A stretch of 64,000 nt of DNA from Acidimicrobiales bacterium (GTDB lineage: Bacteria > Actinomycetota > Acidimicrobiia > Acidimicrobiales > SZUA-35): NCBI GenBank assembly GCA_047974625.1, contig JBKECK010000054.1, forward strand, positions 148,687 through 212,686. The letters are read 5' to 3'. Positions 2,827 through 61,427 of the stretch are shown one piece after another. A model generated the notes under the pieces. That model had not been told where the DNA came from, ran no database searches, and saw only the letters and a list, made by a program, of their open reading frames with translations. A program made the translations under genes and the position numbers. The first letter of the stretch is position 1; the number at the start of each line of letters is the position of its first letter.

Positions 2827-3297
2827 TCAGCCGTTGAGCTGGGCCTGGAGGTACCGCTCGATCCCGATGTCGTTGATGGCGTGCAACTGGGTCTCGATCC
2901 AGTCGAGATGCGCCTCCTCGCCGAGCACCAGGGACTCGCACAGTTCACGGGTCCCCGGGTCACCCTCCTCGACGGCCAGACGGACGCCGCGACGGTACCG
3001 CTCGATGGCGGCCTCCTCGAGGGCTCGGTCGACCTCGAACTGCTCCATCGGAGTCTCCCCGATGCGGACCGTGCCCAGCCGCTGCAGATTGGGCATGCCG
3101 TCCAGCAGGATGATCCGGTCGATGAGGCGCTCGGCGTCGCGCATCTCCTCTATCGACTCCTCCCGGTACTTGCCGGCCAGCCGCGTCCACCCCCAGTTCT
3201 CGCACAGTTTGGCGTGGGTGAAGTACTGGTTGATGGCCGTCAGCTCGGCCGTGAGGGCCTCGTTGAGGAACTCGATGATGGCGGGGGATCCCTTCAT
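2827..3297 (-). CDS. bfr: bacterioferritin
   Basis: The internal start MKGSPAIIEFLNEALTAELTAINQYF... is a classical Bfr N-terminus, followed by ferroxidase E/H residues. 156 aa. The ATG overlaps the bfd stop (ATGA). Confidence 0.9.
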   Translation of the reverse strand: MKGSPAIIEFLNEALTAELTAINQYFTHAKLCENWGWTRLAGKYREESIEEMRDAERLIDRIILLDGMPNLQRLGTVRIGETPMEQFEVDRALEEAAIERYRRGVRLAVEEGDPGTRELCESLVLGEEAHLDWIETQLHAINDIGIERYLQAQLNG

Positions 3298-3533
3298 GCC
3301 GCCGACTGTATCGATCGTGACCGACCCCCCACCGGCGGGGCGGCGATGACGCTCGTCGCCTCCGGCCCGGACCGGTCGGTGACGGCCAGCATCTCCTCGA
3401 GCACGGGCCGGCACCCGCCACAATCGCCCCCGGCCCCGCAGGCGGCCGCCAATGCCTCCACCGTGCGCTCTCCCGACCGGACCAGCTCGACGATCGCCGC
3501 ATAGTTCAACGCTCGGCAGTGGCAGACAACCAT
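3294..3533 (-). CDS. bfd: bacterioferritin-associated ferredoxin (2Fe-2S)
   Basis: 79 aa with CxC near the N-terminus (VCHC) and a later CGGC (CxxC) pair. It lies directly upstream of bfr and is translationally coupled to it. Confidence 0.8.
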   Translation of the reverse strand: MVVCHCRALNYAAIVELVRSGERTVEALAAACGAGGDCGGCRPVLEEMLAVTDRSGPEATSVIAAPPVGGRSRSIQSAA

Positions 3534-3626: not shown

Positions 3627-4463
3627 TCAGCGTCCGACGAAACGGGCGGCGCGTCGCTCGCGGAAGGAGGCGAGGCCCTCCTGGAAGTCGTCGGTGGCGA
3701 GGACGGCCTCGGACATGGCGGGGATGGCGGCGATGGCGGTGGGTTCGTCGTGGTCGAGGGCGAGGCGGGCGTTGGCGATGGTGTGTTGGAGACCGATGGG
3801 GGCACAGGCGAGGATGTCGCGGCCGAGCTCCACCGCCCGCTCGATCTGGCGGCCGGGTTCGACCACCTCCTGGACCAGGCCGATCCGGTGGGCCTCATCG
3901 GCCGAGAACTCGTCGGCCCGGAGCAGGTGGTACATGGCGTTGCCCCAGCCGGCGCGCTGCACGTACCGCACGGTGGCGCCGCCCAGGGGGGCTAGGCCCC
4001 GTCTGGGTTCGAGCTGACACAAGCGGGCGTCGGAGGCGGCCACCACGATGTCGCCGGCCAGGGCGACCTCGATGCCGACGGTGAGGGTGAGGCCCTGGAT
4101 GGCGGTGACCAGGGGTTTGGTGAGCCGGCGCCGCAGGCCGAACGGATCGACCGGTTCCCGGTCACGGTCGCGTCGCCGCCGTTCGGCCTCGGCCCGGGCC
4201 TCGGGGGTGAAGAACAGGGGCATCTCGAGACCGGCGGTGGTGTCGGCTCCGGCGAAGGTCAGCACCCCGGCGAACAGGTCGGCGTCGTCGTCGAGCCGGG
4301 TGAGGGCGTCACCCAACTCATTCATGATCTTCGGGGTCACGGCGTTCTTCTTGGCCACCCGGTCGACGGTCATGACGAGCAGGTGGTCGTCGACCACCTG
4401 CACCCGGACCGTGCCGTGCGGGTGCAGCTCCGTGGGTTCGAGTTCAGCATCATCGAGTTTCAT
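3627..4463 (-). CDS. enoyl-CoA hydratase/isomerase (crotonase) family protein
   Basis: Crotonase-like sequence (VDRVAKKNAVT..., GADTTAGLE, ALAGDIVVAA). The start at MKLDD (4463) is preferred over the track start at 4514. Confidence 0.75.
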   Translation of the reverse strand: MKLDDAELEPTELHPHGTVRVQVVDDHLLVMTVDRVAKKNAVTPKIMNELGDALTRLDDDADLFAGVLTFAGADTTAGLEMPLFFTPEARAEAERRRRDRDREPVDPFGLRRRLTKPLVTAIQGLTLTVGIEVALAGDIVVAASDARLCQLEPRRGLAPLGGATVRYVQRAGWGNAMYHLLRADEFSADEAHRIGLVQEVVEPGRQIERAVELGRDILACAPIGLQHTIANARLALDHDEPTAIAAIPAMSEAVLATDDFQEGLASFRERRAARFVGR

Positions 4464-4554
4464 AATGGAATGGACCCTAGTGTCGACGGTTCCGTGATGC
4501 AATCGCAGTTCCATGATGCAATGGGGGCACCGGTGTCTCCCCTAAGCTGGGGAT

Positions 4555-5022
4555 ATGAAGCGAACCGACACGTCGGGATGGCCGTGCCCCATCGCCCGCA
4601 GCGCGGCGGTACTCGGAGACCATTGGAACCTGCTCCTCATCCGGCAGGCCTGCATGGGCACCCGACGCTTCGACGACTTCCAGCGGGAGCTCGGCATCGG
4701 CCGCAACATCCTCACCCGCCGGCTCAACACCCTGGTCAACGAGGACGTGCTCACCCGGGTGCGCTACCAGGAGTCCCCACCGCGCGACGAGTACCGTCTC
4801 ACCGACAAGGGCCGGGACGCCTACCGGGTGTTGGCCGCCATGGCGGCCTGGGGGGATCGGTGGCTCGGCGGGCCCGAAGGCCCCCCGCTGATCCTCCACC
4901 ACACCACCTGCGGCCACGAGATGCACGCTGTGGTCACCTGCAGCGAGTGCGCCGCCGAGATCGATGTGCGTGACGTGCGGGCATCGGCCGGCCCCGGCCT
5001 GCCCCCCGAACCGACCCGCTGA
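4555..5022 (+). CDS. HxlR-family winged-helix regulator with C-terminal Cys/His extension (paralogue 1)
   Basis: HxlR signature CPIARSAAVLGDHWNLLLIR...RRFDDFQRELGI. Extra tail: WGDRWLGGPEGPPLILHHTTCGHEMHAVVTCSECAAEI. Confidence 0.85.
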   Translation: MKRTDTSGWPCPIARSAAVLGDHWNLLLIRQACMGTRRFDDFQRELGIGRNILTRRLNTLVNEDVLTRVRYQESPPRDEYRLTDKGRDAYRVLAAMAAWGDRWLGGPEGPPLILHHTTCGHEMHAVVTCSECAAEIDVRDVRASAGPGLPPEPTR

Positions 5023-19805: not shown

Positions 19806-20762
19806 GTGGACCGCGCCGAGCACCAACCAGACCGTGATCCTGACCACCGTGATCCTGACCACCGAGATCCTGACCACCGAGATCCTGACCACCGAGATCC
19901 TGACCACCGAGATCCTGACCACAAGGCCCGGGTCCGCCACCAGTTCGGCCGCAACGCCGCCGGTTACGCCACCAGCCCCACCCACGCCGGCGACGCCGAT
20001 CTCGACCTGATGGCCGACCTGCTCCAACCCGATGCCACCTTCGTCGTCCTCGACATCGCCACCGGGGCCGGCCATATGGCCCTGCGGGTGGCGCCGGAGG
20101 TCGCCGCCGTGGTGGCCGCCGATCTGGCCCCCGAGATGCTGGCCCAAGTCGAGGCCCTGACGGCCGAGCGGGGCATCACCAACATCACCACGAGCCGACA
20201 GGACGTGGAGCACCTCGACTTCGACGACGACCACTTCGATGCCGTGATCTGCCGGATCGCCCCCCACCACTTCACCGACATAGCCGCGGCGATGGGCCAG
20301 ATCGCCCGGGTCATCAAGCCCGGTGGAGTGTTCGTGCTCGAGGACAGCTGCTCCCCCGAGGAGCCGGAGCTGGCCGAGTTCATCAACCGGGTCGAGGCTC
20401 TGCGGGATCCCACCCACGTATGGTCCTATCCGGCGTCACGCTGGTCGGAGCTGTGCCACACGGCCGGGCTCGTGGTGGAGGCCGTCGACCGGTTCCCCAA
20501 ACGGCACCGGATCGAGGACTGGATGGAGCGTTCGGCAACCAGTCCGGACGTACGGGAACAGGTCCGGGCCGCCTTCCGAGCCGCGCCGGCGGCGGTCCGC
20601 GAACGGTTCGACATCACCTTCGACGAGCGCCCGGACACCGACGGCGACCCCTCCGGGCCCACCCCCCACGGTGGGGTCCCCGTGAGCTACCGCGACGAGA
20701 AGATCCTGCTCCGGGCCCGCAAACCGGGGGCGCCGACCCCGCCGGGCCCGCCCGGCCGCTGA
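19806..20762 (+). CDS. class I SAM-dependent methyltransferase with N-terminal (HRDPD)x6 repeat
   Basis: Motif I VLDIATGAGHMA and a Methyltransf_11-like core. The conserved pre-motif region (FGRNAAGYATSPTHA) has no in-frame start between it and the repeat, so the GTG at 19806 and the repeat appear to be translated. Confidence 0.75.
   Translation: MDRAEHQPDRDPDHRDPDHRDPDHRDPDHRDPDHRDPDHKARVRHQFGRNAAGYATSPTHAGDADLDLMADLLQPDATFVVLDIATGAGHMALRVAPEVAAVVAADLAPEMLAQVEALTAERGITNITTSRQDVEHLDFDDDHFDAVICRIAPHHFTDIAAAMGQIARVIKPGGVFVLEDSCSPEEPELAEFINRVEALRDPTHVWSYPASRWSELCHTAGLVVEAVDRFPKRHRIEDWMERSATSPDVREQVRAAFRAAPAAVRERFDITFDERPDTDGDPSGPTPHGGVPVSYRDEKILLRARKPGAPTPPGPPGR
19830..19922. repeat. 15-bp tandem repeat GACCACCGAGATCCT, about 6.2 copies
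   Basis: Read directly. The first two copies carry GT instead of GA. In frame with the methyltransferase it encodes DPDHR repeats. Every unit contains GATC. Confidence 0.9.
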
Positions 20763-20770
20763 TCGTCGGC

Positions 20771-21262
20771 TCAGCCCGACGTGGCCGACGGCGGGGGCAG
20801 GGTGGTGTCCGGTTCCGCCCCGGGACCCGCCACCGCCCGCACCGATCGGGCATCCAGCGGTTCACCACAACAGGAGCACACCGGGGTGGCTCGGGTGATC
20901 TGGCCGCAGGCCCGGTGCTCGATCATGACCGGTTCGTTACCTGGGCCCAGGATCCAGTCGTCGCCCCACTCCCGCAGGGCGGTCAGGACCGGCCAGAGGG
21001 CCAGGCCCTTCTCGGTGAGCACATAGTCGTAGCGGCGACGGCCCTCGTCGTAGGGGCGTCGTTCGAGCACCCCGGCGGCGACCAGCTTGTCCAGCCGGTC
21101 GGTGAGCACGTTGCGCGAGATCCCGAGACGGTCCACAAAGTCGTCGAACCGGTGGACCCCGAGGAAGCTGTCGCGCAGGATGAGCAACGTCCACCACTCG
21201 CCCACGATCTCCAACGACTGGGCGATGGCGCAGGGCATGTCGGCGAAGGAGACTTTTCGCAC
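20771..21262 (-). CDS. HxlR-family regulator with C-terminal Cys-rich extension (paralogue 2)
   Basis: CAIAQSLEIVGEWWTLLILRDSFLGVHRFDDFVDRLGI. Tail: WGDDWILGPGNEPVMIEHRACGQITRATPVCSCCGEPL. Confidence 0.85.
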   Translation of the reverse strand: MRKVSFADMPCAIAQSLEIVGEWWTLLILRDSFLGVHRFDDFVDRLGISRNVLTDRLDKLVAAGVLERRPYDEGRRRYDYVLTEKGLALWPVLTALREWGDDWILGPGNEPVMIEHRACGQITRATPVCSCCGEPLDARSVRAVAGPGAEPDTTLPPPSATSG

Positions 21263-21303
21263 ACCCCCAGCATAGAAGTTGCGTCAAGCAACCTACAGTC
21301 GTC

Positions 21304-22134
21304 ATGCTCAGTTGCATGACAGAACCCTTGACGGTTGGAACCGCCCGGTTCGACGCCACCGACCTGGTGGCCGTCCCCGGGCGGAGCGGCGAGTACACGG
21401 TCGACCTCGACGGGGCCTGGATGTCCCTGGTCGCCATCCACGGCGGCTACATGGTGGCCCTCGCCACCCGGGCGGCCGAGGCGGCTGTACCCGGCCGGGC
21501 CGTCCGCACCGTCGCCACCAGCTTCATTCGGCGCGGCAACCCGGGCCTGGCCCGGCTCGTGGTGGAGCCGGTCCGGCACGGCCGCACCATCGCCCAGGTG
21601 AAGGTCGACCTCGTACAGGACGACGACATCGTGTTGGGCTGCCGGATAACCATGGCCGACCCCGGGCTCCGGAGCGAGCCCCTGGACGACCCCTCCCCCC
21701 TGGCCCTGCCGCCGCCCAAAGCCTGCGTCACCGCCGTTCCCCCCAACGCCCCCAACCACTTCACCCGGGCCGAGGGCCTGCTCGACCCGTCCAGCACGCC
21801 GTTCTCCCAAGGGCCGGAGCTCGTCTCCCGCGGCTACATCCGGCCCCGGTTGGGTGAGCCCGACGCCGCCTGGCTGACCATGGCCTGCGATTGGTTCCCA
21901 CCCCCCGCCTTCGTCCGTCTCACCCCTCCGGTGGGCGGGGTCAGCGTGGACATGGTCACCCACATCCACCGGCCCAACACCCCACCGGGGGACTGGCTGG
22001 CCGGGTGGTTCGAGCTGGAGAGCGGGCACGACGGCCTGGCCGTCGAGCGGGGCCGCATCACCACCCTGGACGGGCGGCCCGTGGCCGAGTCGGTGCAGAC
22101 CCGCCTCCTGGTCGGCGAACGCCGCGTCGACTGA
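21304..22134 (+). CDS. acyl-CoA thioesterase-like (double hot-dog, TesB/4HBT_3-like) protein
   Basis: 276 aa with the typical HGGYMVALATRAA...RTVATSF... pattern of thioesterase-II-like proteins. Divergent from HxlR paralogue 2. Confidence 0.65.
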   Translation: MLSCMTEPLTVGTARFDATDLVAVPGRSGEYTVDLDGAWMSLVAIHGGYMVALATRAAEAAVPGRAVRTVATSFIRRGNPGLARLVVEPVRHGRTIAQVKVDLVQDDDIVLGCRITMADPGLRSEPLDDPSPLALPPPKACVTAVPPNAPNHFTRAEGLLDPSSTPFSQGPELVSRGYIRPRLGEPDAAWLTMACDWFPPPAFVRLTPPVGGVSVDMVTHIHRPNTPPGDWLAGWFELESGHDGLAVERGRITTLDGRPVAESVQTRLLVGERRVD

Positions 22135-60411: not shown

Positions 60412-60906
60412 TCAGTGGTCGGAGAGCCGCTGGCCGATAAGGCGGGTCCCCGGTCCGGGCCCACCGCCCGGCCCCGGTCCGGCGCTGACCCCCTCGGCCT
60501 GCACCGGCTCGCCACAATGCGCACAGACCACGGCGACCTCGATGGGGTGGCCGTGGTGATAGGTGATCGCCGGAGGACCGGCGTCGCCGGCCAGCCAGCG
60601 ATCACCCCAGGCCAGCACGGCGAGGATGATGGGCACCAGATCCCGGCCCTGCTCGGTAAGCAGGTAGTCGTGGCGGAGTGGCCGCTGCTGGTAGGCCCGC
60701 CGCTCGACGAGCCCGTCGTCGACCAGTTCCTGCAGCCGTTGGGTGAGCACCTTGCGCGAGACGCCGAGGTCGGCCACAAGCTGGTCGAACCGGGTCAGGC
60801 CCACGTGCAGGTCCCGCACCACCAGCGCCTTCCACGGATCGCCCATGACCGCGAACGAGCGGGCGATCGAGCAGCGCATGGTACCGAAGTCGGTGGAGGC
60901 CCCCAT
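60412..60906 (-). CDS. HxlR-family regulator with C-terminal His/Cys extension (paralogue 3)
   Basis: CSIARSFAVMGDPWKALVVRDLHVGLTRFDQLVADLGV. Tail: WGDRWLAGDAGPPAITYHHGHPIEVAVVCAHCGEPV. The internal ATG (MGAST) was chosen. Confidence 0.8.
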   Translation of the reverse strand: MGASTDFGTMRCSIARSFAVMGDPWKALVVRDLHVGLTRFDQLVADLGVSRKVLTQRLQELVDDGLVERRAYQQRPLRHDYLLTEQGRDLVPIILAVLAWGDRWLAGDAGPPAITYHHGHPIEVAVVCAHCGEPVQAEGVSAGPGPGGGPGPGTRLIGQRLSDH

Positions 60907-60971
60907 GGGGTAGGTTCCCTTCAGAGACTTACTAGGGTATGTGAGTTCCCAACGGAGACTCAGGAGGATCA

Positions 60972-61427
60972 ATGTACTGGAGAACTGTTGAACGTCAGGT
61001 CCGAGCCACGTTCGCGGAGCTCAACAAGGGCAACTATCCGGCCATGCTCGATTCCCTGGCCCCCAACTTTGAATACCACTTCATCGGCGACCACTCCCTC
61101 GGCGGCCGCCGAACCACGATCGAGACCATGGACCGGTGGTGGCAACGCGTGCTGCGCCTGCTTCCCGACCTCCGGTTCGACATCCGGGACGTGATCGTCC
61201 GCGGCCACCCCCTGGACACCCGGATCGCGGTGCGGTCCACGGTCTCGGGCCATTCGCCCCTGGGGGACCCGTACCGGAACGAGATGATGCAGTTCATGCA
61301 CCTCCGACTCGGCAAACTGACCCGGGTGGAGAGCCTGGAGGACACGGCCCTGCTCCAGACCTTCCTGTCGGAGCTGGATCCGGCCGACCATCCCGACGCC
61401 GCCGCCCCGCCCCTGGTGGACGCGTAG
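60972..61427 (+). CDS. SnoaL-like / NTF2-fold protein
   Basis: 151 aa. A FAELNKGNYPAMLDSLAPNFEYHF-type N-terminus typical of SnoaL_2 domains. Divergent from HxlR paralogue 3. Confidence 0.65.
   Translation: MYWRTVERQVRATFAELNKGNYPAMLDSLAPNFEYHFIGDHSLGGRRTTIETMDRWWQRVLRLLPDLRFDIRDVIVRGHPLDTRIAVRSTVSGHSPLGDPYRNEMMQFMHLRLGKLTRVESLEDTALLQTFLSELDPADHPDAAAPPLVDA

Follow-up and report, generated by a model that had tools for sequence, protein, structure and literature searches.

The regulators of the HxlR/DUF24 family are small winged helix-turn-helix (wHTH) proteins, and the gene of a canonical member often lies divergently to a small detoxifying or oxidoreductase gene. One type of C-terminal addition to such a MarR-like wHTH, a type-2 zinc ribbon with swapped segments, goes by the name of Ku-Mar zinc finger (Kaur and Subramanian 2015); it is exemplified by Pseudomonas aeruginosa PA1607 (BosR; Protein Data Bank (PDB) entry 2F2E). 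Kaur, Iyer, Subramanian and Aravind assign 2F2E to the 'MarR family' and describe its type-2 zinc ribbon as 'strand-swapped' (bioRxiv 10.1101/217323; Sci Rep 2018, PMC5906684). Three genes for proteins of this kind, here called paralogues A, B and C, are present in a 64,000-nucleotide stretch of the genome of an Acidimicrobiales bacterium (GCA_047974625.1, contig JBKECK010000054.1, positions 148,687 to 212,686; hereafter the window, numbered from its first letter). Judged by sequence profiles and a predicted structure, A, B and C are HxlR/DUF24 (MarR-like) winged-helix regulators of the PA1607/BosR subfamily carrying a Ku-Mar zinc ribbon. An earlier sequence-only reading of the window had taken this architecture for an uncharacterised one. 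The same C-terminal domain is present without ligands in PA1607 (2F2E, 2006) and in P. aeruginosa PA1374 (4GCV, 2013), and citing papers (PMC5906684; bioRxiv 10.1101/217323) trace the name Ku-Mar to 2015. Solved structures of the domain thus go back to 2006 and its computational description to 2015; it is very common, and A, B and C are new, uncharacterised members.

Paralogue A (4555..5022, plus strand) encodes 155 aa, with a wHTH at residues ~12-104 and a Ku-Mar-type zinc ribbon tail at ~105-148, as delimited from the open reading frame (ORF), Pfam, an AlphaFold2 (AF2) model, Foldseek and ligand conservation. Its putative ligands are H116 (codon 4900-4902), C119 (4909-4911), C129 (4939-4941) and C132 (4948-4950), and its N-terminal cysteine, Cys11, is encoded at 4585-4587. 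Paralogue B (20771..21262, minus strand; 163 aa, GTG start) has the architecture of A, with H116, C119, C129, C132 and Cys11; its exact product had no matching database record. Paralogue C (60412..60906, minus strand; 164 aa) is a His2Cys2 variant with H117, H120, C128 and C131 (pattern H-x2-H...C-x2-C), a loop between the knuckles two residues shorter than in A and B, and Cys12 as the N-terminal cysteine. The product of C matches, with 100% identity, an NCBI protein (P0271) of an Acidimicrobiales metagenome-assembled genome (MAG). All three paralogues thus contain, by sequence, two zinc knuckles (H-x2-C/H and C-x2-C).

The genes had been placed at these coordinates and strands by the sequence-only reading, and the ORFs and Pfam HxlR matches (PF01638; E 7e-23 for A, 9e-20 for B and 3e-24 for C) bear this out; its quoted tails and the four His/Cys positions were likewise correct in all three. 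The HxlR profile scores of 80.7, 70.7 and 85.3 bits (A, B and C) lie far above the curated cut-off of 20.8, and a six-frame scan of the window (71% G+C) with hidden Markov models found no HxlR gene besides these three. The Pfam match spans only residues ~19-104/106, leaving a tail of ~50 aa in each paralogue. The W-G-D-R-W motif, formerly counted as part of the extension, is part of the HxlR domain's final helix, which the model places at residues 90-103; the Pfam match reaches residue 104. The claim that canonical HxlR proteins lack the tail was upheld: alignments to YodB, HypR, QsrR, HxlR and YtcD (107-131 aa) end at about query residue 101-111. Pairwise identity among A, B and C is 42-43%, and their alignment is straightforward through the tail. 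The three belong to different, old orthologue groups, and their presence together within 64 kb is a sign of the family's abundance, not of a recent local duplication.

The identity of the tail comes from its solved homologues. The best PDB sequence matches are PA1374 (4GCV, 168 aa) and PA1607 (2F2E, 146 aa), both of which align through the tail, ahead of the shorter canonical HxlR proteins. A profile built from 142 relatives matches 4GCV with E 3e-41 over positions 1-158 (the single sequence gives E 8e-25) and 2F2E with E 5e-32 over positions 1-143. In Foldseek, the model of A superposes on chain A of 2F2E with a template modelling (TM) score of 0.82 (query) or 0.90 (target), a root-mean-square deviation (rmsd) of 2.3 Å over 144 columns and 35% identity; the values for 4GCV are TM ~0.65 and rmsd ~6 Å. 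HypR, YodB, QsrR, HxlR, YtcD and CdTR_3200 match the model as well (target TM 0.78-0.89), over its first ~95-105 residues only. An all-beta domain homologous to that of 2F2E therefore directly follows a MarR-like wHTH in the model, as both the profile alignment and Foldseek indicate, and this is the arrangement that defines the Ku-Mar subfamily. The columns that hold the four ligands in A are occupied by E, S, A and D in 4GCV and by E, S, R and D in 2F2E, so the solved structures are metal-free versions of the same domain.

Domain libraries give little sign of this relationship. Neither Pfam nor NCBIfam has a model that covers the tail of A, B or C. Sub-threshold zinc-ribbon matches fall on the CxxC knuckle (Zn_ribbon_LysW at E 0.03, TRASH at 0.04, DZR, Zn_Ribbon_TF), and CDC24_OB3 scores 24.8 bits against a cut-off of 25.4; the faint zinc-ribbon matches fit a zinc ribbon without proving it.

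The ligand positions are strongly conserved. The pattern L-H-H-x2-C-x-H-x-M-x-A-V-V-x-C-S-x-C...G-P-G is shared by all of the 120 closest relatives of A, which come from Acidimicrobiales and Ilumatobacter MAGs and are 72-93% identical. Relatives of C were followed down to 48% identity, with cultured Nocardia, Actinomadura, Streptomyces and Jatrophihabitans among them, and keep H-x2-C-G...C-x2-C-G, while the group of C itself and its close orthologues have H-x-[GD]-H...C-x2-C. In the alignment of the 142 relatives (A2), where mean column identity is 38%, all 142 sequences have C129 and C132, 141 have H116 and 116 have C119; the remaining 26 at the C119 column are of the gapped HxxH type seen in paralogue C. 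Searched with a profile, 1.84 billion cluster representatives gave 27,358 matches at E <= 1e-3 and 1,052 at E <= 1e-30. Among the best 150 representatives (clustered at 50% identity), the four columns read HCCC in 257 of the 285 HxlR+tail modules. Exceptions are few, and most have lost both residues of one knuckle or all four. The AF2 model of A has a mean predicted local distance difference test (pLDDT) score of 93 and a predicted TM score (pTM) of 0.83, and the pLDDT of ~89-96 in the tail means that this segment is predicted to be ordered. A chance or disordered tail was ruled out by these values together with the near-invariant ligands in the 142 relatives and in the HCCC modules. The suggestion of a zinc-ribbon-like tail holds up to this extent: the predicted module is folded, has four conserved His/Cys positions, is kept outside this genome and is confidently ordered.

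The best explanation as a whole, and a reasonably probable one, is that the three proteins are HxlR dimers with a structural zinc ribbon, palindrome binding and signalling through the N-terminal cysteine. Each protein would bind 15-bp palindromes as a dimer in the short region shared with the divergent enzyme gene, and the bound dimer would control that gene and its own. The His/Cys site would bind one Zn(II) per chain as a structural ion; the metal would hold the small all-beta C-terminal domain together, and this domain would pair with that of the partner chain and so stabilise the dimer. The signal would be read by the N-terminal cysteine (Cys11 in A), probably in a one-Cys mode by S-alkylation, S-thiolation or oxidation. 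A structural, dimer-forming role is the most likely one for the zinc site on sequence and model evidence, since homologues without the ligands keep the same fold.

The pairing of the tails is suggested by tandem relatives. Most of the top-scoring representatives (P0121-P0270) are fusions of 300-350 aa made of two HxlR+tail modules, from sources such as Pseudomaricurvus, Sneathiella and a Mycobacterium; such fusions occur in Proteobacteria. The AF2 model of one of them, P0131, is a single compact body (pLDDT 90.9, pTM 0.89), and Foldseek returned half-matches of it to 2F2E and 4GCV and nothing beyond. Each tail of the P0131 model has three beta-strands, where the monomer of A is modelled with isolated bridges only, and this fits tails that pair with each other.

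The likelier sensor, on sequence evidence, is the conserved N-terminal cysteine and not the zinc site. Cys11 of A is present in 141 of the 142 relatives, at the start of helix 1 as is usual in the family, within a C-x-I-A-R motif, and it aligns with Cys14 of HypR. The position two residues after it is Ile here and Lys13 in B. subtilis HxlR. A two-Cys switch of the HypR type is not indicated, as the partner Cys49 of HypR ('RRICPS') aligns with Leu46 of A, which is invariant in the 142 relatives. According to PMC9611778, a sensor at an N-terminal Cys has also been put forward for PA1607.

The control regions of A and B contain conserved palindromes that resemble operators. A 15-bp motif, GTTyCATnATGCAAy, emerged when the region between hxlR and ECH (enoyl-CoA hydratase) at A was set beside those of four orthologues. 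Three such palindromes lie in the hxlR-A/ECH region, at 4457-4471, 4489-4503 and 4508-4522. The control region between B and its thioesterase partner has two related ones 33 nt apart, GTTGCGTCAAGCAAC at 21278-21292 and GTTGCATGACAGAAC at 21311-21325 (plus strand). At up to 2 mismatches the motif has 5 matches in the window, representing 4 distinct sites, and these are found only upstream of A and of B (21311-21325); 0.23 matches are expected, and none of 100 shuffles reached the observed count. GTTGCGTCAAGCAAC is the sole exact match to GTTNC-N5-GNAAC in the window. In every A-type locus examined (L081-L091) the hxlR start is preceded, at a distance of ~36-48 nt, by one copy of the motif, irrespective of which gene lies next to hxlR, and a second copy is usually 31-34 nt further upstream. 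Further pairs precede an ECH/Polyketide_cyc2 gene pair (L083) and occur elsewhere (L091). About 650 kb of loci from other orthologue groups gave two weak matches.

An operator common to A, B and C was not found in the control region of C. A generic inverted-repeat search of the three intergenic regions returned a single palindrome, GGGGGCACCGGTGTCTCC, at 4523-4540. A weak operator candidate for C is an imperfect 19-bp palindrome in the C/SnoaL intergenic region (60943..60961), GAGTCTCC-GTT-GGGAACTC on the minus strand. This block is conserved in an orthologous locus (L001, ~3935-3955), where it reads GAGTTTCC-GTT-GGGAACTC, giving a joint form GAGTyTCC-GTT-GGGAACTC from this single comparison; its conservation is ambiguous because the block overlaps the ribosome-binding site of the SnoaL gene.

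The partner genes had been described as a crotonase, a thioesterase and a SnoaL-like gene, each divergent from its HxlR gene, and Pfam supports all three. The partner of A is a gene of the enoyl-CoA hydratase/isomerase family (3627..4514, minus strand; ECH_1, E 6.5e-32), that of B an acyl-CoA thioesterase gene (21304..22134, plus strand; 4HBT_3 and 4HBT_3C), and that of C a SnoaL_2 family gene (60972..61427, plus strand). A divergent ECH gene is also found beside A-orthologues in L086, L088, L089 and L090, and it is likely that the ECH gene is a target of regulation by A. The SnoaL_2 partner likewise adjoins an 85%-identical orthologue of C in L001. The listed ECH ORF starts 17 codons upstream of a Met codon at 4463-4461, from which the product would have 278 aa (271-288 aa in orthologues), and this Met is probably the true start. 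The intergenic region at A is therefore probably ~91 nt rather than 40 nt long, because the Met start gives an orthologue-like length and the ORF as listed would hold two operator-like sites. The listed start codons of the ECH and thioesterase genes overlap operator-like palindromes, the CATnATG core of which reads as a start codon on either strand.

A wider set of loci was collected with the peptide pattern WGDRWL[AT]G in contigs of one genome per species (at least 599 stretches, at least 564 of them confirmed relatives) and a scan with alignment A3. The best 80 of these at least 564 loci, a selection biased towards one 150-aa actinomycete orthologue group, are all from Actinomycetota (Micromonospora, Nonomuraea, Amycolatopsis, Lentzea, Streptomyces, Nocardia, Nocardioides, Iamia and others). 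Within this selection, all 75 recovered tails have H-x2-C...C-x2-C, or H-x2-H in L001, and the upstream neighbour is divergent in 56 of 73 cases. Divergent partners in relatives are small enzymes (RibD_C reductase-like, PNPOx-like, DUF899, cupin, NIPSNAP and SnoaL), and such neighbours are the usual habit of HxlR/DUF24 regulators.

Several points weigh against the proposed combination of structural zinc, ribbon-mediated dimers and an N-terminal signal. Literature searches on HxlR/DUF24 with zinc and on actinobacterial HxlR proteins found no metal-content, DNA-binding or regulatory study of a ligand-bearing member. The segment swap and the dimer role are supported indirectly, through citing papers and a comparison of predicted secondary structure. 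The near-invariance of the ligands would suit a sensory site as well as a structural one. The partner cysteine of the HypR type is absent, and a disulfide between Cys11 and a ribbon cysteine may be conceivable. The sensory alternative makes the His/Cys site a dedicated sensor of redox state or electrophiles: oxidation or alkylation of the thiolates would free the zinc, unfold or re-pair the C-terminal domains and so switch DNA binding, as in RsrA and Hsp33. It can draw on four near-invariant ligands with three thiolates, on a thiol-sensing family (HypR, YodB and QsrR are among the structural matches), on the oxidoreductase-type partner genes of relatives (RibD_C, PNPOx-like, DUF899) and on further conserved His residues in A-type tails (LHHxxCxHxMH). 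However, the same-fold homologues PA1607, PA1374 and P0142 are full-length regulators which lack the ligands and have the N-terminal cysteine, as would be expected of a structural site replaceable by packing, and the canonical sensing cysteine is retained almost throughout the relatives. A dedicated sensory site is accordingly unlikely, if with an appreciable chance, and nothing favours the dedicated sensory module proposed by the sequence-only reading: the ligand-less homologues point to structural zinc, and the N-terminal cysteine is kept.

A different role for the ribbon, compatible with structural zinc and N-terminal signalling, would be to contact the DNA beside the palindrome, in the manner of the related Ku bridge, or to provide dimer-dimer cooperativity on operators spaced by ~32 bp. 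The operator-like sites do come in pairs or triplets with the spacings given above for the A-type loci and for B, the relationship to Ku agrees with it, and the 12 chains in the 4GCV entry are a hint only. Canonical HxlR proteins, on the other hand, bind DNA without a ribbon (7BZG and 4HQE are among the matches), and paired operators, common among dimers of the MarR type, call for no additional domain; this role is improbable. Least credible, with a very slim chance, is a site for iron (rubredoxin-like) or an Fe-S cluster, which would make the proteins iron- or Fe-S-responsive regulators comparable to IscR. The [2Fe-2S] site of IscR consists of 3Cys+1His, the ligand set present here, and the CxxCG knuckle resembles those of rubredoxin. 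An ECH-bfd-ferritin group also adjoins paralogue A in the window and its orthologue in L086, and an FTR1-M75-DyP cluster lies divergently to one A-orthologue. The spacing and hairpin knuckles are nevertheless those of a zinc ribbon, the domain is classed as one (PMC5906684; bioRxiv 10.1101/217323), the iron-gene neighbourhood does not recur (it is absent from L083 and L088-L091), and ligand-less homologues keep the fold. No Rrf2/IscR model is among the Pfam and NCBIfam matches at E <= 1, and the structural matches are to the HxlR and MarR families, which also counts against iron. That the ribbon is more than a structural clip, either as a zinc switch labile to oxidants or electrophiles, possibly acting with the N-terminal cysteine, or as a coupler of two dimers on paired operators, is doubtful; a switch or dimer-coupling ribbon in a large actinobacterial subfamily would be a mechanism unseen in YodB, HypR and QsrR.

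The iron genes near A are the following. A bfd-like [2Fe-2S] gene (3294-3533, minus strand) and a ferritin-family gene (2827-3423, minus strand) lie downstream of, and co-directional with, the ECH gene; the bfd-ferritin arrangement is repeated in L086 (1083-1753), and another A-orthologue is divergent from the EfeUOB-like iron-uptake cluster of FTR1, M75 and DyP genes (L081/L082, 600-3848). Iron genes were not found at the five other A-type loci (L083 and L088-L091). An iron link for paralogue A was dropped because these neighbourhoods are not recurrent. A near-perfect 15-bp tandem repeat, ACCGAGATCCTGACC (6.1 copies, 98% matches), lies at 19831-19922, at the 5' end of a methyltransferase ORF (19806-20762), where it would encode (DPDHR)n; a long ORF that overlaps in another frame contains it too. 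In many members, paralogue C among them (60412-60480; also P0296-P0323 and others), the ribbon is followed by a conserved segment, G-P-G-x4-G-P-G-T-x-[LV]-[IV]-[AG]-x-R-[LM], which A and B lack; in C it is an extra C-terminal motif, GPG-x4-GPGT-x-LIG. This segment aligns with the C-terminal 'AGPAASEEMRQRLA' of PA1374 (4GCV residues ~145-157).

The identification changes how a large set of proteins can be annotated. A, B, C and thousands of relatives are labelled just 'HxlR family' or 'winged helix-turn-helix regulator', with the tail unmodelled in Pfam and NCBIfam; yet the tail has a published identity, the Ku-Mar zinc ribbon, and structures of its ligand-less form have been solved. Among diverse representatives it is the form with ligands that prevails (the HCCC modules counted above); this form is abundant in Actinomycetota, and one biochemical study could settle whether zinc is structural or sensory for a large family. 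The GTTyCATnATGCAAy motif gives a handle for electrophoretic mobility shift assays and for regulon prediction in the A-type group of Acidimicrobiia, including the conserved link to ECH.

Among known systems, the canonical HxlR/DUF24 regulators (HypR/YybR, YodB, QsrR and B. subtilis HxlR) share the wHTH with A, B and C (target TM 0.78-0.89 over ~95 columns) and, in HypR, an N-terminal cysteine, Cys14, aligned with Cys11. They differ in being ~105-130 aa long and lacking the C-terminal ribbon, and in HypR the partner Cys49 occupies a position that is an invariant Leu in A and its relatives. SarS-type duplicated winged-helix regulators (1P4X) resemble the tandem relatives in having two homologous wHTH modules per chain as a pseudo-dimer, but they belong to another wHTH family, lack zinc ribbons and are unlike the single-module A, B and C. 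PA1374 (4GCV) aligns through the tail and the post-ribbon GPG segment; it is an uncharacterised protein with E, S, A and D in place of the ligands, and its C-terminal domain is placed differently relative to the wHTH. PA1607/BosR (2F2E) combines an HxlR-type wHTH with the same all-beta domain at its C-terminus and keeps the N-terminal Cys-x-V/I-A-R motif. It differs in lacking the metal-site ligands, in being proteobacterial and linked to biofilm growth (PMC9611778), and in having no known link to the enzyme partners found at A, B and C. The closest known counterparts of the tail itself are the Ku-Mar zinc finger and the Ku bridge zinc ribbon (Krishna and Aravind 2010): Ku differs in core and function, whereas the tails of A, B and C hold the two intact knuckles that a Ku-Mar ribbon needs.

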